Below are positions 1 to 43,552 of a stretch of DNA of 64,000 nt, in pieces; the first letter of the stretch is position 1, and the number at the start of each line of letters is the position of its first letter. The stretch is from assembly GCA_913047795.1 (NCBI GenBank), contig CAJWTS010000006.1, forward strand, positions 19,363 to 83,362, read 5' to 3'. The stretch comes from an uncultured Verrucomicrobiota bacterium. GTDB lineage: Bacteria > Verrucomicrobiota > Kiritimatiellia > CAJWTS01. Made by a program: the position numbers and the translations under genes. The notes beneath the pieces are model-generated. The model ran no database searches and was not told where the DNA came from. It was given only the letters and a program-made list of their open reading frames with translations.

Positions 1-87
1 AAGAAACGTCTGTAATAGCACAGAAAAGCGCTCGCTTCGGCATAACCGCGGGGCCGGCCCCCTCCGGCAGCGATAATTCCGATAAAA

Positions 88-105
88 GGAATCCCCGGGT
101 ATTCC
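88..105. promoter_or_regulatory. Near-perfect 18-bp palindrome GGAATCCCCGGGTATTCC followed by GCCGGC and a T5 tract, about 125 bp upstream of the nfrB-like start. Candidate operator, or a weak intrinsic terminator of an upstream gene.
   Basis: Read directly: arms GGAAT/ATTCC around a CCCGGG core, then TTTTT at 112-116. Confidence 0.2.
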
Positions 106-230
106 GCCGGCTTTTTGGGTGGACAGATACTTCTAAAACGCTATGAATAACCCTTGCCCAGCGGGAGCACGCATCCGGGAAGACACGGTCAGGAGTGGTA
201 GACGCGGGGAGATAGCCAGGAGCCCGATCA

Positions 231-2249
231 ATGGAAGCCGCAGATCTTTTCTTTTACGCATGGGTCGTCTTTCGGTCTCTCTTCATTTTCCTCATAATTT
301 TCTTCATCGTCAGTGGTCTGGACGATCTGTTTCAGGACATCGTCTATTACTTGCGATGGATATTCAGGGCCATTTTTCGTCGCAAGCTCATCACGCCGGT
401 CACGCGCGAGCAGCTTGATGCCGTTCCGGAGAAGGCCGTCGCGATCATGGTCCCCGCCTGGGATGAGTCGGCGGTCATCGGACCGATGCTACTCAATACC
501 TGCAGCACACTGGACTACAAGAATTTCGTCGTTTTTGTCGGCACCTATCCTAACGATGAGGCAACGCGGGTTGAAGTCGAAAAAATTCGCGACATCTATC
601 CGAATATCGAAGTTGCCATTACGCCGTCCGACGGCCCGACCAATAAAGCCGACTGTCTGAACTGGGTCTACCAGGGGCTGCTTATTTACGAAATGGAACA
701 CGGGGTGCATTTCGATATTTTCTTGATGCACGATTCCGAGGACGTTATCCATCCGCTCTCGATCAAGTATTACAACTACCTGATCCCACGCCTCGACTTC
801 ATTCAGCTCCCGGTTTACCCGCTGGAGGCCAAGTGGACGGACCTGGTGATAGGCGTCTACATGGACGAGTTCGCGGAGAGCCACAGCAAGGATCTGCGCA
901 TTCGGGAGGCCCTGGCTCGTTCCATTCCGTCGGCGGGCGTGGGCACAGCCATGAGTCGCGCCACGATCGAGTTTCTCGCGTCCAGCCACGACAACCAGAT
1001 TTTCGACATCACATCGGTCACGGAAGACTACTTGATGGGACTCAAGCTGGAAGATTTCGAGGGGCGCAAGATATTCCTTCAGCAGGAAATCGAACGACCA
1101 GGCGAAGGGCGCAAGGAGCCGATTGCGACCCGCGCCCTGTTCCCGACGACGTTCGCGTCTGCCGTGCGCCAGAAGTCGCGCTGGATTCTCGGCATCGCGC
1201 TGCAGGGCTGGAGCGTGGGCTGGGGCCGCTCGCTCGGATCGGGCTATTACCTGTTTCGCGATCGCAAGGGAGTGCTCACGAACATCCTGGTTGTCGTGGG
1301 CTACATTGTCTTCTTCTGGTGGGCGATCAGCGGGTTCCTTAACAATCAATTCGCCGGAGTCGACATACCGCCGCTCGTGGAGACCGATGAGATCTGGTGG
1401 AACTTCAGCGGACTCGTACTGGCGCTCTTCGTCTGGCGCATCATCAATCGCGTGGGCTTCACCTGGCACGTCTACGGACCCAAGTTTGCGGTTCTGGCGT
1501 TCCCGCGCATGATTTACGCCAACGTGTTGAACTTCTGCGCGACCTTGGCCGCGATCAACGAATTCGCGAGTGCCAAGCGGGAGGGACGCGTGCCGGAGTG
1601 GAAGAAGACAGAGCATAGCTTCCCGTCCGAAGAACAACTGCGCCGCTACCGCCGGCGCCTGGGTGACATCTTGCTGGACAGGCGCTGGGTAACATCGGCC
1701 CAGTTACAGGAAGCCCTGGTGCGTCAGGAATCGGAGAAGCGCCCCCTGGGCGAACTTCTGGTCGAGATGGGCGTGCTCTGGGAAGAGGACGTAAAACTGG
1801 CGCTTTCTGTACAGGAAAATCGTCAGCGCGTGGAGATCGACCCCTACGCCACGCCCGGGGAACTCCTGAAGCGGGTGCCCCAGCACCTGGCGGAGAAGCA
1901 CAAGGTGTTTCCGCTGGCCTACAGCGGCGATCGAATCGTGTTGGCCACGGCGTCCGAGGACCGTTCCAACCTGGACGAGCTGAAGCGATCCCTCGACGCG
2001 ACGGTCGAGCTGCGCCACTCATCCGAAGCCGAGATCACGTTTGCTATTTCACGCGCCTACACCGACCTGCACCGGCCGGAATCGATGGAGGCCACCCTTG
2101 GCCAGCGCCTTATCGAAAAGGACCTGATCGACGAAAAGACGCTTCGCAAGGCCCTGCGCGAGCAGAAGGCCACGGACAAGCCCTTGGGCGAGGTATTGAT
2201 CAAGATGAAGGCCATCTCGAAGGTGGATCTCAAGGAGGGGTTGCAATAG
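231..2249 (+). CDS. nfrB: Family-2 glycosyltransferase (NfrB-like exopolysaccharide synthase): N-terminal TM segments, cytoplasmic GT-A domain, C-terminal tandem MshEN (T2SSE_N-like) c-di-GMP-binding domains
   Basis: 672-aa ORF. Hydrophobic N-terminus (FFYAWVVFRSLFIFLIIFFIV). GT2-like core (VPAWDESAVIG, MHDSEDVIHP). Four copies of the 24-residue MshEN motif at the C-terminus (RLGDILLDRRWVTSAQLQEALVRQ; PLGELLVEMGVLWEEDVKLALSVQ; TLGQRLIEKDLIDEKTLRKALREQ; PLGEVLIKMKAISKVDLKEGLQ). Confidence 0.8.
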   Translation: MEAADLFFYAWVVFRSLFIFLIIFFIVSGLDDLFQDIVYYLRWIFRAIFRRKLITPVTREQLDAVPEKAVAIMVPAWDESAVIGPMLLNTCSTLDYKNFVVFVGTYPNDEATRVEVEKIRDIYPNIEVAITPSDGPTNKADCLNWVYQGLLIYEMEHGVHFDIFLMHDSEDVIHPLSIKYYNYLIPRLDFIQLPVYPLEAKWTDLVIGVYMDEFAESHSKDLRIREALARSIPSAGVGTAMSRATIEFLASSHDNQIFDITSVTEDYLMGLKLEDFEGRKIFLQQEIERPGEGRKEPIATRALFPTTFASAVRQKSRWILGIALQGWSVGWGRSLGSGYYLFRDRKGVLTNILVVVGYIVFFWWAISGFLNNQFAGVDIPPLVETDEIWWNFSGLVLALFVWRIINRVGFTWHVYGPKFAVLAFPRMIYANVLNFCATLAAINEFASAKREGRVPEWKKTEHSFPSEEQLRRYRRRLGDILLDRRWVTSAQLQEALVRQESEKRPLGELLVEMGVLWEEDVKLALSVQENRQRVEIDPYATPGELLKRVPQHLAEKHKVFPLAYSGDRIVLATASEDRSNLDELKRSLDATVELRHSSEAEITFAISRAYTDLHRPESMEATLGQRLIEKDLIDEKTLRKALREQKATDKPLGEVLIKMKAISKVDLKEGLQ

Positions 2250-2251
2250 GC

Positions 2252-5200
2252 ATGAATCATCGATCCCGCATAAAGATTTCCTGCATTGCCGCCACGGGTC
2301 TCCTCTTGATTGGTGCCGGCCCGCTCGTGGCGGAAGAACTGTCGCAGGCCATGCCCATCCCGAAGCCGAAGGCGGGGTATGGCTGGTTCAAGAATCAGCG
2401 CGTCAACTACAGCAACCGTCCGTTGTGGAAGAAGGCCAACGCGTTGGTGGCGGAAGGCAAGCACACGCGCGCAGCGCGCGTCTACGATTCGATCCTCGCC
2501 ACGGACCCACACAACAACAAGGCCAAGGTTCACCTGATCCACCTCTACTTTCAGCTCGAAGAGTGGACCAGAGGCATCGACCTTGCCGAGAGCCTGATTG
2601 CGAATTATCCGGATTACCTCGATGCCTATTTCTTCAAGGCCAATTATGCGCTCAGGGCCGGGCGGACCCAATTGGCCGTCCGGACCTTCGAAGACATTCT
2701 CAATCGCGACCCCAGCCGGGCGGTCGCGAATTCCGAGGCGTACAAGGGCCTGGCGCGCGCACGATTTCCGGCGCGGGCGTATCAGAAGCGTCTACCCGAG
2801 GTGCACCGTAGCCTGGCGCGACTGTACTCCCTGAGCGGCGACGCCATGCGCGCGGAGGAACACGCCGCGCGTTGGCGTGACCTGACCGACGAGGGCGAAG
2901 CACATCTTTTTGTCGCCGAGAGCGCACTGAGCCGCAAAGACTGGGACAAGGCGATGGAGGCCCTGACCCTTGCCGGCGAACGCGTCGATACGGAAGAGCT
3001 GAAAGGACGCCTGAGTCTCAAGCGCGGAATGGTCCTCTATAATCTGAAGGATTACGACCGCGCGATGAACGAGCTCATGAACGCCGAAAGCAGAACCGAG
3101 AACGCCGCGGACAAGGCCCTGGCCCAGCGTTACCTCGGCCAAATTGCACTCAAGAAGGGCGCGAACACACGTGCGGCCGATTACCTGTTGTCCGCTACCG
3201 CGATCGCTTTTGACGAAGACGCTGGCGCCGCAGCCCTGCAGGCATTAATGGCGTCCGAGCAATGGGAACGCGGGGTAACCGCGGCCGAGAAGATGCTCAA
3301 GCGGGAAAATCTCTCCGATAACTTCCAGCGCGTGGCGAATGAGAACCTGATGTATTTCTACAAGAATAGCGGCAACGACCGCGGGTATGCCATGGTTGCC
3401 GATAAGCTGCGGCGCGAGAGCCCGGATGATCCGCGCTACCTGCTCGAGAGCGCCGTCGGTGCCGACCGGCTGGGGCGCGATGAGCGCGCGCGCGAATTCT
3501 ACACCACATATCTGGAGGGAAAATTCGACCCGGCCGTTGCCTTCAACCTGTTCTACCTGTTGAAGGAAACCGAGGACCTGGCCGCCGGCGAGGTTGTGCT
3601 CGACCGGGTCGTGGCGACGGAAGGACTAACAGACGACATGCGGCTCGCCGCGAACTACGAACTTGCGCAGGTCTACCGCGCGACCAACCGCACCAATGAC
3701 TACATGCGCATCATGGACCAGGTGGTCCTCGAGAAGGCCGAGGCGGAGCTGCTGTTTGAATATGGCGTGCAGCTCTACGGCAGCGGCTACGATGACCTGG
3801 CCGTCGAGCTATTCAAAAAGGCGTTCGAGCGCCAGACGGAGGCTGCCGACAACTTCAAGACCGCGATTATCATCGCCAAGATCAACATCGGGCACGGCGA
3901 GAACGAGGTCGGCCGCGAATGGTTAGAAAAGGCGCGTGCGTTCGGCGAGGTCGATGACGAATGGCATATCACGATGGCGCGCACGTATTTCAACAACGCC
4001 GAATATGATGCGGTGATCGAGCGCCTGCTGGGCGTGGTCAGCGAGCAGGACACGGGCGGCAACCTGCTGCTCGGGTTTACCTACCACCTGATGCGCATGC
4101 CCGGTCTGTCGCTGTACCACCTGAATCGCGTCGGCTCGCCGGAGAAGCTGGACCCCAGCGAGCGCAATACGCTTTTCTCAAACCGGGCCTACCTCTGGTT
4201 TGACCAGGGCAACTACGTTAACGCGCTGGCGGATGCCGAACGCGCTGTTGCGCCGCACACCGCAGACCAGATGATGCTGGTCCAAATGAAGGCGCTGTTG
4301 CCGCTAAATCGCTACGAAGAGGCGCGCGATATCGGTCTTGAGTTGCTCGACACGATGGACGAGGAGGAGGCGCCTTCCTTCGTCGCCGACCTGATGAAGA
4401 CGCTGGGAACCGTTCATTTCTATCTCAACGATAACGAGAACGCGGTCGAGTTCTTCACGGCGGCACTTAAAGTTGATGACGGGCAGTACGACGTCTACTA
4501 CCTGCGCGCCCTCGCCTATCACCGGCTCGAGGAGTACGAGAAGGCCGAGGAAGATTTCCTCCTGATAGAGACGGAGTCGTCTTTCATCCCGGCCGTGCTC
4601 TGGGGCGACATGGGAATCGTGGAGGGCTATCTTGAGAATTACGATACCGGCACCGTGGTTCTGGCGCGGTCGCTCGAGTACTACCGGTACGATATCGACG
4701 GCATCGAAGAGATGGCATACCAGCACATGAAGAACAACGACAATGCGAAGGCGCAAGATGCGTTCTTCCGGGGCGTGCGCGCGTACGACAATGTTATCCC
4801 GTACATCACCGGGCCGGATCGCGAAATTTATACAGACGACCGCAAGGCCCTGAAGCGCGAGTACGCCAAGCTCGATCGGACGTGGACATTCGAAACCTAT
4901 GTTAACCGGACAGAATTTGGGGACGACGCGGTTGCGGGCTTCGCCGGAACGCTCTCGGCAGTGGACGGCGGCCTGCCCTCCCAGGCAGGTGTCTACCTGG
5001 GGTATCGACCTCCGAAGCTGGGGTTTCGAGATGAGAAGACCCTGGATGGGTTCGCGCGCGTGCTGGCGAATTTCGAGCCCGACTCCTGGGCCCTCGACGA
5101 GGATACCTATCAACTCGGGATTGGATTGGACTGGAAACCCTTCAAGGCGTTCAACTATTCGATGAGCTTCGAGAAGCTCATCGCGATCGGGGATAACGCC

Positions 5201-32874: not shown

Positions 32875-33291
32875 TCAGGGCTTTGTCGTAATCGCGAAGC
32901 GCTCGATCCCCAGTTCGCGCAGCACGTCCAACACGTCGACCGTGATCTGCGTGGGACTGTCCGCATCCGCCTTGATCGCAACCGCTTGCACGCGACGCGT
33001 TGCGGTCAGCGCCCGCAGTCGTTGATAAAGCGCGGTCGAAGAGGGCACAAAGGTCTTCTCCATGGCCAGCTCGCCGTTCGCGCTGATCTCGATCACGACC
33101 GTGGACGATAGATCCAGGATCTCGGCCGGGTCGGCGTTGCGCGCCGTGGGCAGCTCGATGGGGAAGAACGTGTCCTCGGCAAAGGTCGTCGTGACGATGA
33201 AGAAGAGCAGCAACATGAAGATGACGTCGATCAGCGGGGTGATCTCGAGCTGATCCTCATCGTCCGCGATCGCGTCAGAGAGCCGCTTCAT
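32875..33291 (-). CDS. exbD: Biopolymer transport protein ExbD/TolR
   Basis: MKRLSDAIADDEDQLEITPLIDVIFMLLLFFIV, canonical ExbD N-terminus plus periplasmic domain. Confidence 0.8.
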   Translation of the reverse strand: MKRLSDAIADDEDQLEITPLIDVIFMLLLFFIVTTTFAEDTFFPIELPTARNADPAEILDLSSTVVIEISANGELAMEKTFVPSSTALYQRLRALTATRRVQAVAIKADADSPTQITVDVLDVLRELGIERFAITTKP

Positions 33292-34012
33292 TTTTCGTCC
33301 CTCCGCTCCTGGCGTGCAGGTACCCGTAACGGACCCGGTCGATGTCGGACTCGATGCTCTCGCTGAACCGTTGTACGCGGGACAAAAACGCGCGGCGCGC
33401 GATGATGCCTGGGATGGCGATGACGATCCCAAAGACGGTCGTGAACAGCGCGATCATGATGCCCTCGGCCATCTTCTGTTTATCGGGATTCAAGGAAACG
33501 CGAATTTCGTCGAATACCAGCACCATACCGACGACCGTGCCGAGCAACCCCAGCAGGGGCGCGATCGTCGCGATCGTGCCGATCGCCTGGATGTTGCGCT
33601 TCAAGGGCTTCAGGGCCAGGAGCGATGCCTGTGTCAGCGTTTCCTCCAGGGCGACCCCACCCAGGTTGAATTCGCGCAGCCCCTGCGCCCAGGCGCGCCC
33701 GACCGTGGTGTTCGATTGCTCACAATGCTTTTGTGCGCTTTCGAAATCCAGTTTGCCGGCCTGGTCGATCACCGTCTGCGTCAGCGATCCATCCAGTACG
33801 TTTGCTTCACGCAACGCCAGCGAGCGCTCGAAGATCAGCATCGCGAGGACCAGCGAGCAGGCCCAAAGCGGCATCATCGGCACCGCGTACAACTCCTCGA
33901 CGTGACTGCTCAAAACACTAGCGTTATCCGCGGCCTCGTCGGCAGCAACGCAGTCGCCGGGGGTCGCGTACAGGACGGCAAACAAGGCCAGCATTAACAA
34001 TTTATTTTTCAT
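33275..34012 (-). CDS. exbB: MotA/TolQ/ExbB proton-channel protein
   Basis: GTIATIAPLLGLLGTVVGMVLVF...IMIALFTTVFGIVIAIPGIIA. ATG overlaps the stop of the upstream 881-aa gene (ATGA). Confidence 0.8.
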   Translation of the reverse strand: MKNKLLMLALFAVLYATPGDCVAADEAADNASVLSSHVEELYAVPMMPLWACSLVLAMLIFERSLALREANVLDGSLTQTVIDQAGKLDFESAQKHCEQSNTTVGRAWAQGLREFNLGGVALEETLTQASLLALKPLKRNIQAIGTIATIAPLLGLLGTVVGMVLVFDEIRVSLNPDKQKMAEGIMIALFTTVFGIVIAIPGIIARRAFLSRVQRFSESIESDIDRVRYGYLHARSGGTKNEAAL

Positions 34013-36654
34013 CGTATCGGGGCGGCCGCCGTGGCCATGCGCTGCAGGGTCAGCACGGGTGCCGCCATTCTCATTTTGCACTCAACCGTGCGGTTTTTTT
34101 CGCCATATGGCGTGAAACGATCTTTGTACACGACCTCCAGTGTCCTTCCGCCATGAACCCCCAGCGTATTCGCGCGCGGCGGCTTGAAGGCGGCCTGGGT
34201 CGCGACCGACCCGCGGAAGACGCCCGTGTCCTCACCGGTCTCTTCCAATATGGCGTATATGTAAGAACGTGCGGACCTCTCTTTCACGGCGACCATGACG
34301 CGATCCCGGTGCGTAGGCAAGAGATTCATATCCTGGTCGGTGACTTCGATGCCGACCGATTGTCCGGCCTGGATCGGTTGCGCCGCCTTGGCCGGTCGAC
34401 GGAAATGGGTGAAACGGACAGTGGCATCGGTGCCCAGCAGAAGCACGTCGCCCCAGGTGTCCGGCTTGTCGAATGTCTGCATGTTTTTCGGCAGGGACCA
34501 TTGCTGCGAGATCTCGCGCGCGTAACCCATGTTAATGGAGATATTCATGGCCACGTACAGGCCTGCCCGAAGATGGGGGCGGGCCAATGCGGCCCGGCTG
34601 ACGAACCCTTCGACCGTGTACCCCGCGGCGTCCAGGCGTCCGGTTGCGAGTCCTCGCGCCCGGGCCGGGTCCGTCACCGTCTCGAGACGGTTCTCGTAGC
34701 GGCCCAAGCCGCGAAACCCGCGACCGACCTCGATGAACGTCTGTTGCGCTGCTCCGCGATACCCGAACGGCATCAGGCAAAATTGCTGTGCGTAGGGGCT
34801 GTGATGCATCGTGCGTTTTCGCAGGTTCTGCATGTCGATCCATACCTCGAAGCAATCGCCCTCCCAGGCGCTCGTCTGATTGGGCTGCACCTGTGTCCGG
34901 CCGGGGACGTGGTAGCAATAGTAGAACCCCGCGCGAGACCATCGCACCCACACCTGGATCCCGTCCTCGAGCGGAACGCCATTAAAGGTCCAGCGCATGC
35001 GGAAGGGATGACGCAAGGCACCCCAGTCGCCGAGGTCGCCGTCGATTGTAAGGGACGCGCGCTGAAACGCCGCCGCGCCAAAGGCCAGTGTTTCAAAGCG
35101 GGGCCGGCTAAGCTTACGTGTCCTGCCGTCGGTCGACGCGCGCGGCCGCTGTTCGCCGTCTTCGACGAAAACACGCTCGGCCAGTAATTTCGATGTCGCC
35201 GCGGCTCGCGACACCGCGACATCAGCCAGGTTCTCGACAAGGGCCGCGCCCGGCGGGACGTTGGTTTGCCGCCGCGAGACAAACGCGCGGTAGATGTCAT
35301 AGGTGTCATGGTTGACGCGCGCATAGCGGTTGTATCGGTCCTCGAATGCCGCATGGCCCGTGCTCTCGGATTCCCCGCCGGACGACGCGCCCGACTGGAG
35401 CTCGCTCAAGGACGTGCCTAGCGGTCCAGCCGGCATGGGCATGCCGTGGCCCGAATCCGGACCCTCGCCCTCATGCTCCACATGGGGCCCCTCTCCTTCC
35501 CCGAGTTCGCGTGTCGCCTCGTCGTAGGTCACCGTGGAGTGGCCCAGGCGAAAGGTCTGCGGCGCGTCGTCAAAGCGTGCCAGTTTACCGGCCAGCGTGT
35601 CGAGGCGCCGCAACTGCTCCGCGACACCGGGGGTCAGCGCGAGGTCGGCCACGATATGGCGGTAAGCCGCACGGATACTGGCGCGCGTGCTGGCGGCGCC
35701 CTTTGGCGCGACCCCTTCATAGACCGCGACGGCAACCCCCGGAAGATCGCCGCCGCGCGCGTCATCCAGGCGATGCGCGGCGGCGAAGGTGATAAACGCA
35801 TTGGAGACCGCCGGAGCATGTAGTGCGCCCTGCAGGATGTTTTCAGCCAGCACGTCGCGGATCGGCGTGGAGAGGCGACCGACAATCGTCATGTCCGACC
35901 ACTCGATCTTGAGGAGTTCTTCCCGGACCTTTGCCAGCAGCTGGCGATCGATATCTTCGATCCCCTTCTCGCGGAGCTCGAGATCCATGGCGCCCGAAAC
36001 CTGTCGCGCCAGGGGCGGCAGTGTGGCGGTGAATATCGCCGCGTGGGAGGGCATCGCCTTCCTTGTTCGCGCCTCCTGCGCGATCGCGTTGTTCAGGGAT
36101 GTCGCGATCAGGGGCGCGGTCTGGCTTCGCAGGGCGGCGCAGGCGCGCGCATCAAAGGCAGGCGCGAGCGTTCGGCGAATGTAGGCCGCGACTTCGCCCG
36201 CGATCATCCGCTCGGACAAGCGTGCCAGGTATTGCTGCAGGTTCGTTATCGAGTGTTCGAAAAACGGTTGCGCCAACGGCGAGATGGATTCCAGGGTTCC
36301 GGCCTCGCGGCGTGCCTGCGCAAGGAAGCGTTCGCTCTCGTTCCGGACCTGCACGCGCACATCTTCCGCCAGGGCGTCCTGCAGCAGCGTTTCCAGCTCC
36401 TCGAGAACGGTGTCGCTCAGCTCTTCCGCCTGCAACTCGTGCTCTTCCTGCCGAATGCGCTCCTCTTCTGCCGCTTGCGCCTCGCGCAGCTCCGCTGCGG
36501 CTTCGTGGCGACGCTCTTCGATCGTCTCTGTTTTCCGTTCCCCGACAAGCATCAGGCCGAAAACGATGGCGGTATGCCATACGAGTGACAAAACGATTGG
36601 CCAGTGATATCGCGGCTGAGACATGCGTGCCAATGATCGAGCCTTGCCGCTCAT
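34009..36654 (-). CDS. Large membrane-anchored protein: N-terminal TM, long acidic/coiled-coil region, C-terminal beta-sandwich (CBM9/DOMON-like?) domains. Translationally coupled to exbB-exbD; possible TonB-like energy-coupled partner.
   Basis: 881 aa. TM (WPIVLSLVWHTAIVFGLMLVG). EERIRQEEHELQAEE-type charged helix. C-terminal IDGDLGDWGALRHPFRMRWTFNG...CFEVWIDMQN block. Confidence 0.55.
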   Translation of the reverse strand: MSGKARSLARMSQPRYHWPIVLSLVWHTAIVFGLMLVGERKTETIEERRHEAAAELREAQAAEEERIRQEEHELQAEELSDTVLEELETLLQDALAEDVRVQVRNESERFLAQARREAGTLESISPLAQPFFEHSITNLQQYLARLSERMIAGEVAAYIRRTLAPAFDARACAALRSQTAPLIATSLNNAIAQEARTRKAMPSHAAIFTATLPPLARQVSGAMDLELREKGIEDIDRQLLAKVREELLKIEWSDMTIVGRLSTPIRDVLAENILQGALHAPAVSNAFITFAAAHRLDDARGGDLPGVAVAVYEGVAPKGAASTRASIRAAYRHIVADLALTPGVAEQLRRLDTLAGKLARFDDAPQTFRLGHSTVTYDEATRELGEGEGPHVEHEGEGPDSGHGMPMPAGPLGTSLSELQSGASSGGESESTGHAAFEDRYNRYARVNHDTYDIYRAFVSRRQTNVPPGAALVENLADVAVSRAAATSKLLAERVFVEDGEQRPRASTDGRTRKLSRPRFETLAFGAAAFQRASLTIDGDLGDWGALRHPFRMRWTFNGVPLEDGIQVWVRWSRAGFYYCYHVPGRTQVQPNQTSAWEGDCFEVWIDMQNLRKRTMHHSPYAQQFCLMPFGYRGAAQQTFIEVGRGFRGLGRYENRLETVTDPARARGLATGRLDAAGYTVEGFVSRAALARPHLRAGLYVAMNISINMGYAREISQQWSLPKNMQTFDKPDTWGDVLLLGTDATVRFTHFRRPAKAAQPIQAGQSVGIEVTDQDMNLLPTHRDRVMVAVKERSARSYIYAILEETGEDTGVFRGSVATQAAFKPPRANTLGVHGGRTLEVVYKDRFTPYGEKNRTVECKMRMAAPVLTLQRMATAAAPIR

Positions 36655-36751
36655 CCGTCCAGCCGATTCCTCGCGCGGCAGGGGGAACCCCTAGCCCGCT
36701 CCTCCTTCGTCTTGCCTTGACAATTCTGCTCGCTCACGAAAACTCTGCTGC

Positions 36752-37564
36752 ATGTCCGGCTCCCTCCCGAAAGCGAATGCGAATGCGGATGGCGACGCGA
36801 TCGTGCCGCTTTCCGAGGAGCAGCGCTATCTGTTCGACACCAGGGGCTGGCTGTGTTTTCCGGGCCTGATCGGCGAAGAAGAGCTTGGGCCGATGCGCGC
36901 GTTCTATCGCCAGCTCAAAGACGACCCGGAGTCCCTGGTCGAGCACGAGCGCACGACCATCGCGGGGCCCCTGCTGCGATCGATCGACCATCCCGTGCTG
37001 GTGGGGTTTCTTCAGGCGTTCCTCTCGTACCAGGCGTTGGCCGGCGAGTCCTGCTACGATTTTCGGCTCGAATCGAGCGCCATGTATTTCCGCCCCGCCG
37101 GCTTCGACGCCTTTCGGCCGCACGGTGGGCAGGGCATGTTCGGGCGGCCCATCAACTCGCATGTCTATCACGTGCTGCCGGGCCAGGCCTACGCGGGCCT
37201 CGTTCGCGTGGTCTGGGAGCTCAACCCGGTCCGCATGGGCATGGGTGGCACCAAGTTTCTTTCGGGCAGCCACAAGGCCGCATTCCCCATCCCTAAATCT
37301 GCGTCTGAGGATCGCCTCTCGCCGTTATGGGAGACGTACGAATGCCCGGCCGGCTCCCTGCTCGTCTTCACGGAAGCCATTTGCCACACGGGAGATCTTT
37401 GGGCCGACGAAGAGCACGATCGCATGGCCGTCTTCCGCTGCTACAACACGGTCGGCAGCAAATGGCACGAGTGGGAACCACCGGAGAAGCTCGTCGAAAC
37501 CATGCACCCGCTGCGCCAGAGCCTTTTCCGGGCGGTGCATTGCGAGAACAACCCACTATCGTAA
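36752..37564 (+). CDS. Phytanoyl-CoA dioxygenase (PhyH) family Fe(II)/2-oxoglutarate oxygenase, paralog A
   Basis: LSEEQRYLFDTRGWLCFPGL PhyH N-terminal signature. His/Asp-rich core. Confidence 0.7.
   Translation: MSGSLPKANANADGDAIVPLSEEQRYLFDTRGWLCFPGLIGEEELGPMRAFYRQLKDDPESLVEHERTTIAGPLLRSIDHPVLVGFLQAFLSYQALAGESCYDFRLESSAMYFRPAGFDAFRPHGGQGMFGRPINSHVYHVLPGQAYAGLVRVVWELNPVRMGMGGTKFLSGSHKAAFPIPKSASEDRLSPLWETYECPAGSLLVFTEAICHTGDLWADEEHDRMAVFRCYNTVGSKWHEWEPPEKLVETMHPLRQSLFRAVHCENNPLS
37504..37553. repeat. 50-bp perfect direct repeat, copy 1 (last 16 codons of PhyH paralog A)
   Basis: GCACCCGCTGCGCCAGAGCCTTTTCCGGGCGGTGCATTGCGAGAACAACC, identical to 41766-41815. Confidence 0.9.
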
Positions 37565-37811
37565 GCACAGACCCACGCGGTCCGCTAGTGCCCGCCCGCT
37601 GAATTTTCGTAGCTGGCGCCCTGTCCTTCGTCGCTACGGGTTGTCCGGCACGGCAAGCGAAGCACGAGGCAGGAATCTCCCGAATGCCGTCCCTTTTTTC
37701 CCTGCCTGCCCCCTAACCATGCTTGCCCACGTCTCGATTCCTGATTAGGTTGAACAGGCTTGTAATCATGAACCGTTACCACTCCATAGGGAGCAGGGGT
37801 CACCACCGGAC

Positions 37812-39635
37812 ATGGCGAAAAAGAAAGCCGCGCACAACTATGATGAGAGCAAGATCAAGACGCTTTCTTCGCTCGAACATATTCGCAAGCGCACGGGTAT
37901 GTACATCGGGCGCATCGGGGACGGCACCCACTACGACGACGGCATCTATATCCTGCTCAAGGAGGCCATCGATAATGCCGTCGATGAGTTCATCATGGGC
38001 CATGGCACCTGCATCGATGTGGATATCGACGGCACCGAGGTAACCGTCCGCGATTACGGCCGTGGCATCCCGCTCGGCAAGGTGGTCGACTGCGTCTCGC
38101 GCATCAATACCGGCGCCAAGTATAACGACGATGTGTTCCAGTTCAGCGTGGGCCTCAACGGCGTCGGGACCAAGGCCGTTAACGCGCTTTCCAGTGACTT
38201 CCGAGTGTGCAGTGTGCGGACCGAACGCTACGCCGAGGTAACCTTTAAACAAGGCCGGCTGGTCAAGCAGCAGAAGGGACGCGAAAAGGACGAAAAAGAC
38301 GGCACGCTGGTGCAATTTACGCCTGACCCGGAGATCTTCGGAGAGGCGGCTTTCGATGCCAATCACCTCGAAAAACGCATGCGCCTCTACACCTATCTCA
38401 ATGCCGGGCTGACCGTACGATTAAATGGGCGGCGACTGCTCTCGGAGGGCGGGTTGCTGGATCTCGTGACCGAAGAGAGCCAGGACGAGGCCGTCTATGT
38501 GCCCCTGCATTTCCGCTCAAAAACCCTCGAGATCGCGTTTACGCATACGCAACGCTTCAACGAAACCTACCTTTCGTTCGTGAACGGGCAATATACGAGT
38601 GATGGCGGCACGCATCTCAGTGCCTGTCGCGAAGGCGTACTCAAGGCGGTCAACGAATTTACGAAGAAGCGCTACGAGGGCGATGACGTGCGCGAGGGCA
38701 TCGTGGCGGCCGTCGCCATTCGCCTGCAGGATCCGATCTTCGAGTCGCAGACAAAGAACAAGCTCGGCAATACAGAGATTCGCGGCGAGCTCATGTCGCA
38801 GGTAAAGGACGCGGTCCTCGACCTCTTGCACCGCAACCCCGAGGCCGCCGAACAGGCCGCCATCAAGATCGAGGAGACGCAGAAGCTGCGCAAGGAACTG
38901 TTGTCCGTCAAAAAGATCGCGCGCGACCGCGCGCGGGCAACATCCATCCGCGTGCCGCAACTCAAGGACTCCAAGGAGCACTATGATCCCGCGAAGGGCA
39001 AGGGCGAGGAAACCATGATCTTCATCACCGAAGGCCAGTCGGCCGCCGGTACCATCGTGAGTTGCCGCGACGCCGCGACGCAGGCGGTATTCACGTTGCG
39101 CGGGAAACCGCTGAACGTCTGTGAGCTCAAGCGCGACGCGATCTATAAGAATGATGAACTATACAACTTGATGCGCAGCCTCCAGGTCGAAGAATCCCTC
39201 GCCACACTGCGCTACAACAAGGTCGTGCTTGCGACCGACGCGGATGTGGACGGCATGCATATCCGCAACCTGTTATTGACGTTTTTTCTGCGCTTTTTCG
39301 AGGATCTGGTTATCAAGGGCCACGTGCATATCCTTGAAACGCCGCTTTTCCGCGTGCGCAACAAGACGACGACCCACTACTGCTACTCCGACGAGGAGCG
39401 CGGGCAGGCGATCAAGGCCATCGGACGCGGGGCAGAGATCACGCGCTTCAAGGGATTGGGCGAGATCTCGCCCCATGAGTTCAAGGCCTTCATCGGCAGC
39501 GATATGCGCCTGTGCGAAGTGCGCGTGGATCAGCAGAACGACATCCCGGAGATCCTTTCGTTCTATATGGGACGCAATACCCCCGAACGGCGTGCCTACA
39601 TCATGAACCATCTCGTCGTCGAAGCGAGCACGTGA
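37812..39635 (+). CDS. parE: Type IIA topoisomerase ATPase/Toprim subunit (ParE/GyrB family, compact 607-aa form)
   Basis: RKRTGMYIG, VDNAVDE, DYGRGIP, GLNGVG, Toprim block EGQSAAG...DADVDGMHI. Confidence 0.85.
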   Translation: MAKKKAAHNYDESKIKTLSSLEHIRKRTGMYIGRIGDGTHYDDGIYILLKEAIDNAVDEFIMGHGTCIDVDIDGTEVTVRDYGRGIPLGKVVDCVSRINTGAKYNDDVFQFSVGLNGVGTKAVNALSSDFRVCSVRTERYAEVTFKQGRLVKQQKGREKDEKDGTLVQFTPDPEIFGEAAFDANHLEKRMRLYTYLNAGLTVRLNGRRLLSEGGLLDLVTEESQDEAVYVPLHFRSKTLEIAFTHTQRFNETYLSFVNGQYTSDGGTHLSACREGVLKAVNEFTKKRYEGDDVREGIVAAVAIRLQDPIFESQTKNKLGNTEIRGELMSQVKDAVLDLLHRNPEAAEQAAIKIEETQKLRKELLSVKKIARDRARATSIRVPQLKDSKEHYDPAKGKGEETMIFITEGQSAAGTIVSCRDAATQAVFTLRGKPLNVCELKRDAIYKNDELYNLMRSLQVEESLATLRYNKVVLATDADVDGMHIRNLLLTFFLRFFEDLVIKGHVHILETPLFRVRNKTTTHYCYSDEERGQAIKAIGRGAEITRFKGLGEISPHEFKAFIGSDMRLCEVRVDQQNDIPEILSFYMGRNTPERRAYIMNHLVVEAST

Positions 39636-41725
39636 ACGAAGATCAGCTATTCTTTGAACCCGCGGTGTCGTTGTCTACAACGGATGTCGACGATGCGGAA
39701 GGCCTGGCAGACACGCTGATCCCCGATGGCGATGGGGGTACCGGCGACAACGGCGCATCCGTCCCCGGCGATGCGACTCCGCCGGATGGGCCGCTGCGGC
39801 GGATGATCGATGATCACTTCATCCAGTACGCGTCCTATGTCATCCGCGACCGCGCCATCCCCGACCTTGCGGACGGACTTAAGCCTGTCCAGCGGCGCAT
39901 CCTGTGGTCGCTGCATGAGCAGGACGACGGAAAGTTTACCAAGGTAGCCAACGTCGTCGGCCATTGCATGCAGTACCATCCGCATGGCGATGGCTCGATT
40001 GCGGCTGCGCTGGTCGGGCTGACCAACAAGCTGACCCTGATCGAGGGGCAGGGCAATTTCGGTAACCTGCATACTGGCGACCCGGCCGCTGCCTCGCGTT
40101 ACATCGAATGCCGCCTGACCGGTATGGCGCGCGACGAGTTATTCAATGATCACCTGACGCGTCTCGTGCCGAATTACGACGGGCGCCGCAAGGAGCCCGT
40201 AACACTGCCCTGCAAGCTGCCGCTGCTCCTGTTGCTCGGCGCCGAGGGTATCGCCGTGGGGCTCTCCACCCGGATTCTGCCGCATAACCTGGGCGAGTTG
40301 CTCGAGGCCCAGATCGCGATCCTCACGAAGGAGCGTTTCCGCATTTATCCCGACTTCCGGCAGGGCGGCACGATGGATATTCGCGAGTACAACAAGGGCA
40401 ATGGCCGCGTGCGCGTTCGCGCGCGAATCGAACCGCGCGGCAAAGACACGATCGTCATCACGGAAATCCCCTTCAGCACCACGACCGAGTCGATCATGGC
40501 GTCGATCGAGGCCGCCGCGCGCAAGAAGAAGATCAAGATTCGCGCCATCCAGGATTATACCGCCGAGGCGGTCGAGATAGAGATTACCCTCGACGAAGAC
40601 CAGGAGCCGCAGCGCGCCATCCAGGCTCTCTACGCCTTTACGCAATGCGAGGTTCCGATTTCGGCGCGATTGATCGTTATCGACGATGGTAAGCCCGTCG
40701 AGATGGACGTGAATGCCGTCCTGCGTGATGCCACCGAACGACTGGTCAAGATCTTGAAACGCGAGCTGCAGTGGCGTAAGCGCGAACTCGAGGCGGACGT
40801 TCATAAGCGCACGTTGATCCAGATCTTTGTCGAGAATCGCATCTACAAAAGAATTGAAGAGTGTGAGGCCTATCCCGAGGTGCAGGCGGCAGTACGAACC
40901 GGGTTCGATCCGTTCGCCGCGCAGCTCACGCAGTCGGTCACCGAGAAGGATATCGAAATGCTGCTGTCGATTCCGGTCAAGCGCATCTCGCGTTTTGATA
41001 TCAAGCGCAGTCGCAAGGAAATCGGCGACCGCGTGCGCGAGATCGGCGAGATCGAGAAGAAGCTGGGTGCCATGACGCCGTACGCCGTTCAATATCTGCG
41101 CGGCATGATCAGGGCCTATGCTGGTGACGCCGTACGGCGCACGAAGGTTGAAACGTTCAAGGATGTCGAGATCCGCGATCTCACGGCCGAGGAGCTGACC
41201 GTTCGCTACGACGCCGCGACCGGGTACCTCGGCACGGGAATCAAGGGCGAGGACGCTGTCCTGACCTGCTCGTCGTACGACAAGGTGCTCTGTGTCTGGC
41301 CCGACGGACGCTACAAAGTGATCCCGCCGCCGGAGCGGCTGTTCGTCGAAGAATTGATTTATCTCGGCCCTGCCGAGCGCGATCGCGTGTTGACCATCGT
41401 TTTCACGCATGGCGACTTCACATTCCTCAAGCGCTTTAAGCTGGGGGGTACGATCATGAACCGGGACTACATGGCCGGTGGTGTCACCTCGCGGGTCCTG
41501 TACTTCTCCGACGCGTCACCGGAGACGCTCTACGTCAAGTATCACAAGGCCAGTCGCCTGCGCATCACCGAGCAGGAATTCGACCTGACCGCCGTCGTGG
41601 CGCGCGGCGCGCGCGCGCGCGGCAACCAGATGACCAGCAAGAAAATCCGCGTCATCACCGACGTGCGCCCGCGTGGCTGGAAAGACGATCCCGACCGGCC
41701 CCGCGGACGGTTCAAAAATTTCTGA
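39632..41725 (+). CDS. parC: Type IIA topoisomerase DNA breakage-reunion subunit (ParC/GyrA family, ~697 aa)
   Basis: MQYHPHGDGSIAAALV, AASRYIECRLT. GTG start overlaps the parE stop (GTGA). Confidence 0.85.
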   Translation: MNEDQLFFEPAVSLSTTDVDDAEGLADTLIPDGDGGTGDNGASVPGDATPPDGPLRRMIDDHFIQYASYVIRDRAIPDLADGLKPVQRRILWSLHEQDDGKFTKVANVVGHCMQYHPHGDGSIAAALVGLTNKLTLIEGQGNFGNLHTGDPAAASRYIECRLTGMARDELFNDHLTRLVPNYDGRRKEPVTLPCKLPLLLLLGAEGIAVGLSTRILPHNLGELLEAQIAILTKERFRIYPDFRQGGTMDIREYNKGNGRVRVRARIEPRGKDTIVITEIPFSTTTESIMASIEAAARKKKIKIRAIQDYTAEAVEIEITLDEDQEPQRAIQALYAFTQCEVPISARLIVIDDGKPVEMDVNAVLRDATERLVKILKRELQWRKRELEADVHKRTLIQIFVENRIYKRIEECEAYPEVQAAVRTGFDPFAAQLTQSVTEKDIEMLLSIPVKRISRFDIKRSRKEIGDRVREIGEIEKKLGAMTPYAVQYLRGMIRAYAGDAVRRTKVETFKDVEIRDLTAEELTVRYDAATGYLGTGIKGEDAVLTCSSYDKVLCVWPDGRYKVIPPPERLFVEELIYLGPAERDRVLTIVFTHGDFTFLKRFKLGGTIMNRDYMAGGVTSRVLYFSDASPETLYVKYHKASRLRITEQEFDLTAVVARGARARGNQMTSKKIRVITDVRPRGWKDDPDRPRGRFKNF

Positions 41726-41765
41726 GCCTGCCCACCGGCCGGCACGCTGCACATGCGCCGGAGGC

Positions 41766-41815
41766 GCACCCGCTGCGCCAGAGCCTTTTCCGGGCGGTGC
41801 ATTGCGAGAACAACC
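41766..41815. repeat. 50-bp perfect direct repeat, copy 2
   Basis: Identical to 37504-37553. Weaker similarity continues for ~90 nt downstream in both copies. Confidence 0.9.
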
Positions 41816-41985
41816 TGCTCGACGCTATCTGCCCCGCCAGCGCCCGCCGCCGGAATTTTCATAGCCGCTGCCCCGGCCATTGGCCTGCGAAGGGGAGCGC
41901 GATGGTCTGCTTCCGACATGGCAATCGAATTCCCTGCTCCAGGGAACAATCGGATCCGGGAACGGCTTCAGGGAACAGGCCATGA
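41766..41985 (+). pseudogene. 3'-terminal remnant of a PhyH-family gene (HPLRQSLFRAVHCENN...), no upstream body
   Basis: In-frame translation matches the C-terminus of paralog A, then diverges. The upstream sequence is the parC 3' end. Confidence 0.5.
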
Positions 41986-42158
41986 AATTTGACTGCCGGG
42001 CCCCTTTGGGCTGATACTTCCGCTTCGCTGTCAGGTTCAACCTGGAGGCACCGCAAGACCATGAAGAAGACTGCGCTACTCTTACCCGTCGCCCTGTTGC
42101 TGACCTGTGCCGCGCAGGGGACGCCGAACTCGCCCCGCCGTCCACGCCGAGGGCCACG

Positions 42159-43298
42159 ATGAACGCGGGCTTCGAGGCGATGATGGAGCCGGCGATCGCC
42201 AGGTGCACGACGCTCTCGCCGGTGGAGGCGCGGCACTTCGTCGACCACGGCTGGGTCCTGGTGAAGGGCGCGTTCTCGAAGCAGATCGCGGCGGATGTCG
42301 TGGCCTGCGCCTGGCGCGAGCTCGAGGAGCAGGGCATCATGCAGGACGACCCGGAGACATGGAAGCTGGGGTCGTACACGCGGACCGGCGGCCCGCCCGA
42401 GGTGTTCATCATGGCCTCGCGTGGCGACGAGGCGGCGGCGGCGAAGATGCTCGAGATCCGGACGCGCTACGGCCTGCCGCCGAAAAGTCCGCTGCTGCAC
42501 GATGTTGCCCCGCGCGCGCTCGGCGCGCAGCTCGACTGCGTGGGCGGCCTGGATCGGGTGAAGGACCCGGAGCTGATCAGGCTGGTGGACTCCGTCGCGG
42601 TGAACCTGTGCGGCGAGGACGGCGACCTGGGCGAGGACGGGTGGAGGTCGACGCGCACGCCGGGGTGGCACAAGGACGGCTGGCACTTCCGCCACTTCCT
42701 CGACACGCCGCAACAGGGGCTCCTGCTGTGCTTCTTCTACGACGACATCCTCCCCGATTCCGGCGGCACCCAGATCTGCGTCGACTCCATCGGCGTCGTG
42801 GCGCGGCTGCTCGCCCAGCACCCGGAGGGCATCCACCCGGACACGGTCCAGGACTACATCAAGCCCTACATGATCAAGGAGTGCGGCAAGTTCGAGGAGC
42901 TCACGGGGGAGGCGGGCGACATGGCCATGATGCACCCGTATATGGTCCACCGCGTCGCGGCCAACCCCAGCGGCAGGGCGCGCTTCGCGCAATTCCCCTC
43001 CATCGGGCTCTCCGAGCCGATGCAGTTCGGGCGCGATGACCCGGGCGAGTACAGTCTCGCGGAGCTGATCGTGCTGAAGGAGCTTGGGGGGCTGAAGCGC
43101 TTCGACTTTGCGACGCAGGCGGATTACGCGACGTATCCACGCGAGGACATCACGCCGCCGCCATCGCGGACGAAGGAAGAGTGGCGGGCGATCAGCGTGG
43201 AGCTGTATGAGGAGCAGCAGAGGATGGCGCGGACGGAGCCGGAGTGGGCGCAGGAGATGTGGACCAGGCGCGAGCGCCCCGACATGTCCGGGCGCTGA
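42159..43298 (+). CDS. Phytanoyl-CoA dioxygenase (PhyH) family oxygenase, paralog B. A lipoprotein-type signal peptide ORF (42061-42162) lies upstream in a different frame.
   Basis: LSPVEARHFVDHGWVLVKGAF PhyH signature. The upstream ORF MKKTALLLPVALLLTCAAQG has a GGAGG RBS and ends in TGA overlapping the ATG. Confidence 0.7.
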   Translation: MNAGFEAMMEPAIARCTTLSPVEARHFVDHGWVLVKGAFSKQIAADVVACAWRELEEQGIMQDDPETWKLGSYTRTGGPPEVFIMASRGDEAAAAKMLEIRTRYGLPPKSPLLHDVAPRALGAQLDCVGGLDRVKDPELIRLVDSVAVNLCGEDGDLGEDGWRSTRTPGWHKDGWHFRHFLDTPQQGLLLCFFYDDILPDSGGTQICVDSIGVVARLLAQHPEGIHPDTVQDYIKPYMIKECGKFEELTGEAGDMAMMHPYMVHRVAANPSGRARFAQFPSIGLSEPMQFGRDDPGEYSLAELIVLKELGGLKRFDFATQADYATYPREDITPPPSRTKEEWRAISVELYEEQQRMARTEPEWAQEMWTRRERPDMSGR

Positions 43299-43552
43299 TG
43301 CAGATAGCGGCCGCAACCGATCCGCGCAGATGCACATTATCTCTGCGTCAAACAGCGCCGCTCACAGCCACCTGACCGTGGGCTAGCCTCTGTCCGCCGC
43401 CAACGGCCGCAGTGGTCTCGCGCACAGTTCGTCCATCTCGTCGAGACCCGCCCAGCCCAGCACCCGCCTGAGATAGATGCAGAAGCCCGGCTCCGCGCCG
43501 TCGCCCGGTCTCGCGCGACGTGCGGTACGTCACGCGGGAAACGCGAACGTTC

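Follow-up and report, generated by a model that had tools for sequence, protein, structure and literature searches.

Many integrative elements carry a copy of the 3' end of their target gene. In such elements the attL and attR sites share an identical core that brackets the integrated segment and overlaps the target 3' end. Integration leaves the target gene intact, with a small change at its C-terminus, and the original 3' end is displaced and remains as a stub. Duplication-join remnants and template-switch insertions leave part of a gene, in direct orientation, next to unrelated DNA with a sharp new junction between them; the fragment is a strict subset of a nearby intact parent and decays by insertions and deletions (indels). 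Transposon target-site duplications are direct repeats of target sequence that flank an inserted segment, and non-allelic gene conversion leaves an island of perfect identity within an older, diverged duplication, with heterology on both sides. Here, we describe a locus that shares these traits, in which two exact copies of a 50-nt sequence bracket the topoisomerase IV genes parE and parC. It lies in a 64,000-nt stretch of DNA (the window; contig CAJWTS010000006.1) from an uncultured marine member of the PVC (Planctomycetes-Verrucomicrobia-Chlamydiae) group. The left copy (copy 1) is part of geneA, which codes for a PhyH-family oxygenase, and the right copy (copy 2) follows parC. The repeat is probably a rearrangement scar, left when the native parE-parC operon was relocated into the 3' flank of geneA, and we regard it as an ordinary genomic scar and not as a new system. 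Unlike duplication-join remnants, the locus retains one operon copy, and the bracketed DNA appears to be a relocated operon of an essential type rather than duplicated local sequence. Unlike transposon target-site duplications, which measure 2–14 nt, the repeats measure 50 to ~160 nt, and there is no transposase and there are no terminal inverted repeats (a repeat search detected none at the segment ends).

Coordinates are positions in the window, and the exact 50-nt repeat (GCACCCGCTGCGCCAGAGCCTTTTCCGGGCGGTGCATTGCGAGAACAACC) is termed the core. A repeat search of the window and reading of the sequence both gave 50/50 identity for its two copies (Table 1), which are in direct orientation with a start-to-start spacing of 4262 nt. 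The 64 kb contain no other high-identity direct repeat of at least 30 nt. The 25-nt halves of the core, searched with up to 3 mismatches, were present at these two sites of the window only (0 expected from 100 shuffles), and no further core copies were detected in 80 related PVC-group loci either, on which grounds a dispersed repeat family was rejected. To the right of the core, 37582-37621 and 41834-41873 matched at 31/40 positions (a score reached in 0/300 shuffles), and a second collinear block, 37644-37661 and 41912-41929, matched at 15/18 positions (reached in 16/1000 shuffles); an indel-rich gap lies between the core and the first of these blocks. Self-comparison of the window revealed no similarity between the copies to the left of the cores, and the left edge of the duplication is therefore sharp. 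The core and the two collinear blocks thus delimit a duplicated segment of ~160 nt, abrupt at its left edge and frayed towards the right. The exact 50-nt core is the best-preserved part of this duplication of the geneA 3' end.

Table 1. Features of the region around the 50-nt repeat (positions in the 64,000-nt window).
Feature	Position	Strand	Description
geneA	36752..37564	+	270-aa protein assigned to the PhyH-family Fe(II)/2-oxoglutarate oxygenases; parent gene of the duplicated segment
Core copy 1	37504..37553	+	encodes HPLRQSLFRAVHCENN, geneA codons 252-267; includes family-invariant L258 and R260
Diverged tail of copy 1	37554..37661	+	derived stop (PLS-stop), probable remnants of the ancestral C-terminal tail, geneA downstream DNA
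parE, topoisomerase IV subunit B	37812..39635	+	Pfam HATPase_c, DNA_gyraseB, Toprim, DNA_gyraseB_C; GC3 0.778
parC, topoisomerase IV subunit A	39632..41725	+	NF007209, 756 bits (cut-off 644); GC3 0.782
Spacer from parC stop to novel junction with geneA fragment	41726..41765	+	40 nt; unlike geneA upstream of the core
Core copy 2 (non-coding stub)	41766..41815	+	identical to copy 1; also in contigs L081 and L139
Diverged tail of stub	41816..41929	+	starts CTGCTCGACG (LLD), like the LVD of orthologues; then frameshift and indels
Foreign cassette	41977..43468	+	small signal-peptide ORF 42061-42162 and geneC 42159-43298; right-hand limit of the stub region

Copy 1 still terminates geneA, whereas copy 2 is a non-coding, decaying stub of the geneA 3' end. 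As is typical of duplication remnants, the stub shares homology with a segment of its intact parent gene and begins at a sharp, non-homologous junction. It has 16 conserved codons left, and its tail is frameshifted relative to the C-termini of geneA orthologues and carries several indels, so that it cannot encode the geneA protein. The 40 nt after parC had no significant similarity to the region downstream of parC in sister species, and homology to geneA downstream DNA beyond the geneC cassette was not significant either. An earlier sequence-only reading of this DNA had reported the exact repeat, a weaker similarity downstream of it, and parE-parC as the only genes between the two copies, with the GTG start of parC overlapping the parE stop (a 4-nt overlap, GTGA). 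All of these observations hold, and the feature extends further than that reading had indicated. It had also taken the core for the last 16 codons of geneA and copy 2 for an in-frame C-terminal remnant. The core does span 16 codons, but the final three of the 270 (PLS) and the stop lie outside it, and the stub resembles a geneA C-terminus for about three codons after the core but not beyond.

Exact short repeats can confuse de Bruijn assemblers when k is 50 or less, and a mis-join or collapse at the 50-bp repeat would produce such a picture artificially. However, three independent assemblies agree on both junctions. A European Nucleotide Archive (ENA) contig (k119_85927, L081), assembled at k=119 and thus with k larger than the repeat, is 99.99% identical to the window (2 mismatches in 20.8 kb) and contains both copies at the same spacing. 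Two Joint Genome Institute (JGI) Tara contigs carry geneA-core-parE (L082) and parC-core-geneC (L139, 99.97% identical), and the break in this assembly falls inside parC and not at the repeat. The order geneA-core-parE-parC was also present in a second strain (L093), which is ~98.6% identical. The repeat is not an assembly artefact, an explanation whose probability we regard as negligible.

The parent gene was characterized through its homologues. Compared with the Pfam PhyH model, geneA itself scored below threshold (13.7 bits, cut-off 22, E=0.079). It has 309 homologues, many with PF05721, including close ones at 50-60% identity, and its family profile matched an oxidase/hydroxylase structure (PDB 4XCB/4XC9) at 1e-12. 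On this clear homology to members, we assign geneA to the PhyH (PF05721) Fe(II)/2-oxoglutarate oxygenase family. After the motif HCE[ND]N, orthologous proteins continue with LVDG[DE]R[ST]YPP for 9-18 residues, whereas geneA in the window stops after three (PLS-stop), and its C-terminus is evidently truncated relative to the orthologues. Traces of the longer form may survive in both tails. That of the stub begins with CTG CTC GAC G (LLD; CTGCTCGACG), 9/10 nt of which are shared with L089 (CTGGTCGACG), and after a gap of ~10 nt it reads CTATCTGCCCCGCC, resembling TAT CCG CC of the orthologues. In the copy-1 tail of L093, a 12-nt insertion that gives rise to the stop (PIS-stop) is followed by a retained GACGAG...CGCTATCCGCCCCGCC, and the window strain has lost 45 nt in this tail relative to L093. 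It is suggested by these tails that both copies descend from a longer ancestral 3' end of geneA and that each decayed independently. The same area is a hotspot of strain variation: 37554-37580 and L093 positions 985-1056 differ in 57 alignment columns, including the 45-nt indel, while the two strains are ~98.6% identical elsewhere. The geneA end reads NNPLS-stop (CCACTATCGTAA) in the window and NNPIS-stop (CCGATCTCCTGA) in L093, i.e., a near-identical peptide with different codons.

The bracketed genes were identified as topoisomerase IV on the basis of their domain sets, the equivalog-level match of ParC and their adjacency. ParE scored below the equivalog cut-offs and is 58-72% identical to PVC-group ParE proteins whose genes lie next to parC. 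The window has GTG as the first codon of parC, and L093 has ATG. In both strains this codon overlaps the parE stop (GTGA/ATGA), an indication that parC truly begins at 39632 and not at the upstream GTG at 39512 in the ORF list. GC3 values of the two genes fall within the range of most neighbouring genes (0.75-0.80). In comparison with sister species, ParE is 80-81% and ParC 73-74% identical, comparable to geneA (69-74% amino acid identity). Because GC3 resembles that of the neighbours and divergence resembles that of geneA, parE-parC is judged to be a native, vertically inherited operon. A dip in GC content over the two genes was considered as a sign of horizontal transfer and rejected, as GC3 is normal and the dip is due to GC2 (amino acid composition). 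In addition, an alternating GC run (gcgcgcggcgcgcgcgcgcgcgg, 41600-41625) was observed in the 3' end of parC, which encodes the poorly conserved C-terminal tail of ParC.

These properties of the operon bear on whether the repeats could be the attL and attR sites of an integrated mobile module. In such a module, the core would be where a site-specific recombinase makes its crossover, and the element would have brought its own copy of the target 3' end, which would explain the identical core, the similar but diverged 3' tails, the intact target gene and the displaced original 3' end persisting as a stub. However, no gene for an integrase, recombinase or transposase appeared in the Pfam lists for the interval between the repeats and about 10 kb on either side, and the core has no palindromic or structured character. 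In contrast to known integrative elements, there is no mobile gene at this locus and the cargo, a housekeeping operon with native GC3 and vertical-looking divergence, is host-like; evidence of mobility was found nowhere else. Searches of plasmid and phage collections showed weak parE conservation only, with nothing else matched, on which basis a mobile-element origin of parE-parC was rejected. We consider an integrated module very improbable.

We further examined the two loci in related organisms. The best ParC matches among species-representative genomes were from Kiritimatiellia metagenome-assembled genomes (59%). Among the 80 related PVC-group loci, parE was located directly upstream of parC in 40 of the 70 that were informative, and neither geneA nor geneC was found near parE-parC in the related PVC-group loci examined. 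In sister species, the operon has deiodinase/GNAT genes and a gene for a parvulin rotamase as its neighbours, and the genes after the geneA orthologues encode GFO/MetRS, a PQQ protein or response regulators. One sample, JGI 3300010883, yielded both geneA-type and parE-parC-type contigs. Thus, geneA and parE-parC occupy separate loci in the sister species, and the window arrangement is absent there. The sequence-only reading had raised the question of whether parE-parC lies elsewhere in relatives, and it does, apart from the geneA orthologues. None of the sister-species neighbours (rotamase, deiodinase, GNAT, GFO, MetRS, ORF6N, Fe-ADH and two PhyH genes) was present in the window. Given the separate loci in sister species and the native character of parE-parC, we infer that the operon was relocated into the geneA 3' flank in this lineage. 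The left neighbours of geneA (an 881-aa protein, ExbB and ExbD) are also found in sister loci L083 and L090, suggesting that geneA is at home and that the operon is the newcomer.

The left side of geneA has a history of its own. The 881-aa/ExbB/ExbD block (33275-36654; L083 positions 1-4551, L090 positions 1-1347) lies upstream of the geneA orthologues too, but in the opposite orientation and farther away, which points to a local inversion and gene loss in this lineage. The divergent intergenic region between the 881-aa protein gene and geneA (36671-36709) contains a cluster of ~15 differences between the window and L093, including a 5-nt indel.

The present arrangement probably arose as follows. 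The operon (about 4.1 kb including its leader) would have been placed into the 3' flank of geneA, and ~160 nt of the geneA 3' end (the final conserved codons, the part for the variable C-terminal tail, and DNA downstream) would since have been present to its left and to its right. The left copy would have continued to end geneA, and the right copy would have become a dead stub, without function of its own, that starts abruptly at a new junction 40 nt past the end of parC. Conservation of the parE leader with sister species starts no later than 37778 and probably near 37711, and the homology of the stub ends at 37661, i.e., about where this native leader begins, which favours a one-step duplicative insertion. 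It may have occurred by template switching, by a staggered break that was filled in or by the single crossover of a circle, the switch, break or crossover having returned ~160 nt upstream of the exit point.

A close alternative, which we rank second and consider unlikely though far from negligible, is a tandem duplication followed by deletion. In this scenario parE-parC would already have been beside geneA, an illegitimate exchange between 41765 and geneA codon 251 would have duplicated a 4262-bp unit, and the second operon copy would later have been deleted. The direct orientation of the repeats, the sharp and novel left junction and the stub being a strict subset of its parent are all consistent with it. 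Moreover, tandem duplications that form with little or no homology at the junction and are later remodelled are common in bacteria (e.g., PMC7661048, PMC9997567). However, three events, and thus more steps, are needed, and the deletion must have ended by chance within about 50 nt of the boundary between geneA DNA and the parE leader. One-step relocation of the operon is therefore preferred.

After relocation, both tails would have decayed by indels and by about 21% substitution. The alignable tail blocks differ at 12/58 positions (46/58 identical; ~21%), in addition to indels, while the core is 50/50 identical. In parE, the window and L093 differ at 15/1824 positions (about 0.8%), all synonymous. 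The contrast between ~21% tail difference plus indels and ~0.8% in parE implies that the duplication long predates the split of the two strains. If the core of the stub had decayed at half the rate of its tail, about 5 changes would be expected; 0 were seen, with a probability of roughly 0.5% by our estimate. In orthologues, the cores are identical at 32-36/48 positions (12-16 differ) and match at only 7-9/16 third codon positions. As half of the third codon positions differ, deep constraint at the nucleotide level is not supported. A perfect core next to diverged tails, together with divergent cores in orthologues, argues for local homogenisation and not for a conserved DNA or RNA element. 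The likely cause of the identity is short-patch gene conversion, by which the core would have stayed, or become again, identical, with purifying selection at the protein level on the coding copy contributing. To the left, the conversion tract would have stopped where homology ceases, and to the right at the indel patch, the stretch that varies most between the strains. Compared with known cases of non-allelic gene conversion, the tract is only 50 nt long, near the lower limit for homologous exchange. The sequence-only reading had proposed either a recent event or constraint on the segment. The duplication is not recent and deep nucleotide constraint is not borne out, but a recent homogenisation of the core is likely. 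Its other proposal, that a duplication or gene conversion had left a 3' stub behind, agrees in essence with the evidence.

Selection might instead have kept the core identical, either as a cis element (a regulatory site or an RNA element) required after both geneA and parC or as a recombination substrate for reversible amplification of the operon. The perfect identity beside about 21% divergence and the low probability of neutral decay are compatible with this explanation, and 50-nt direct repeats can support RecA-mediated unequal exchange. However, when the core and the two extended copies were folded as RNA, on either strand, the z-scores were ordinary (-0.86 to +1.28), no terminator or promoter consensus was present at either core copy, and Rfam scans of the core at gathering thresholds and at E<=1 produced no match; the core as an RNA element was rejected on these results. 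The divergence of the coding positions in orthologues and the confinement of the feature to a single lineage also speak against selection on the core, which we regard as improbable. Still less probable is the specific version in which the repeats are selected as the ends of an amplifiable or excisable 4.26-kb topoisomerase IV unit. RecA-dependent unequal exchange would then reversibly raise parE-parC dosage, e.g., under topoisomerase poisons, and conversion and selection would keep the core while the stub decays.

Several observations weigh against relocation followed by gene conversion. The similarity of the tails to the tails of orthologues is not significant at the DNA level and comes from few codons. 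We know of no standard dedicated bacterial mechanism for a target duplication of 160 nt. A length of 50 nt is near the minimum for RecA-dependent exchange, and conversion would be inefficient. Outside the window, copy 2 was seen only in genomes with at least 99.97% identity to it; no second lineage with the stub was found, and the case for gene conversion therefore comes from one genome. Furthermore, no relative at 80-97% identity containing parC with its downstream DNA was found, nor was any genome with an empty site or with a stub whose core had diverged. In the search for ParC homologues, the next match after the protein itself was at 74%; its cluster contained the window's own sequence and one fragment, with no other members, and a search with the ParC C-terminus gave nothing above 46% identity. 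Relatives with geneA and no adjacent parE do exist, but they are so diverged (69-74% amino acid identity) and rearranged that their right flank is not comparable.

To the right of the stub, the DNA has a different origin. GC3 of geneC is 0.939, compared to 0.75-0.80 in most neighbouring genes. The related contig L094 (93.7% nucleotide identity) is homologous only from 41977 to ~43468, placing the cassette breakpoints at 41976/41977 and ~43468, and is flanked on both sides by unrelated DNA of lower GC content. Relatives of geneC (L094-L100) are located in differing, unrelated gene contexts. Thus, geneC is a compositionally foreign piece. The sequence-only reading had regarded the gene at 42159 as a full PhyH paralogue of geneA. 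This is not demonstrable: the two proteins matched with a BLASTP E value of 0.27 and an hhalign profile-profile probability of 14%, and geneC was below the Pfam PhyH threshold (15.4 bits, cut-off 22, E=0.022), so that its status as a geneA paralogue was rejected. The geneC profile matched leucine hydroxylase 5NCH weakly (1.7e-3), and a relationship to geneA at the superfamily level is possible. Since geneC is foreign and unlike geneA, there is no PhyH tandem array. The proposed insertion of the topoisomerase genes into such an array is correct in that the operon apparently arrived beside geneA, but the array itself disappears, its other member lying in a foreign cassette.

Additional features were observed within the cassette. 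The small ORF upstream of geneC (33 aa, MKKTALLLPVALLLTCAAQGTPNSPRRPRRGPR) has a lipoprotein-like signal peptide, and its stop overlaps the geneC ATG (ATGA). It is still open in L094 in spite of +9 and +12 nt indels. In other geneC relatives, different upstream ORFs likewise end in ATGA at the geneC start, and this recurring overlap suggests that the upstream ORF and geneC are translationally coupled. The ~170 nt 3' of geneC (43299-43468) are conserved with L094 to the same degree as geneC and locally more, ~120 nt being almost invariant. The first ~107 nt of this region are also present in L095 and L101, and the region includes a CGCAGA...TCTGCG hairpin. No Rfam family matched the region, and it could be a cassette-borne non-coding element.

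For annotation of this genome, the stub ORFs 41753-41992 and 41797-41985 should not be called genes, and labelling the gene at 42159 as a tandem geneA paralogue should be avoided. The importance of the feature beyond this genome is little. Within it, the locus offers a clean, well-bounded example of what is probably the relocation of a housekeeping operon in an uncultured marine Kiritimatiellia-like bacterium. If the amplification scenario were true, the repeats would constitute a simple natural device for tuning topoisomerase dosage.

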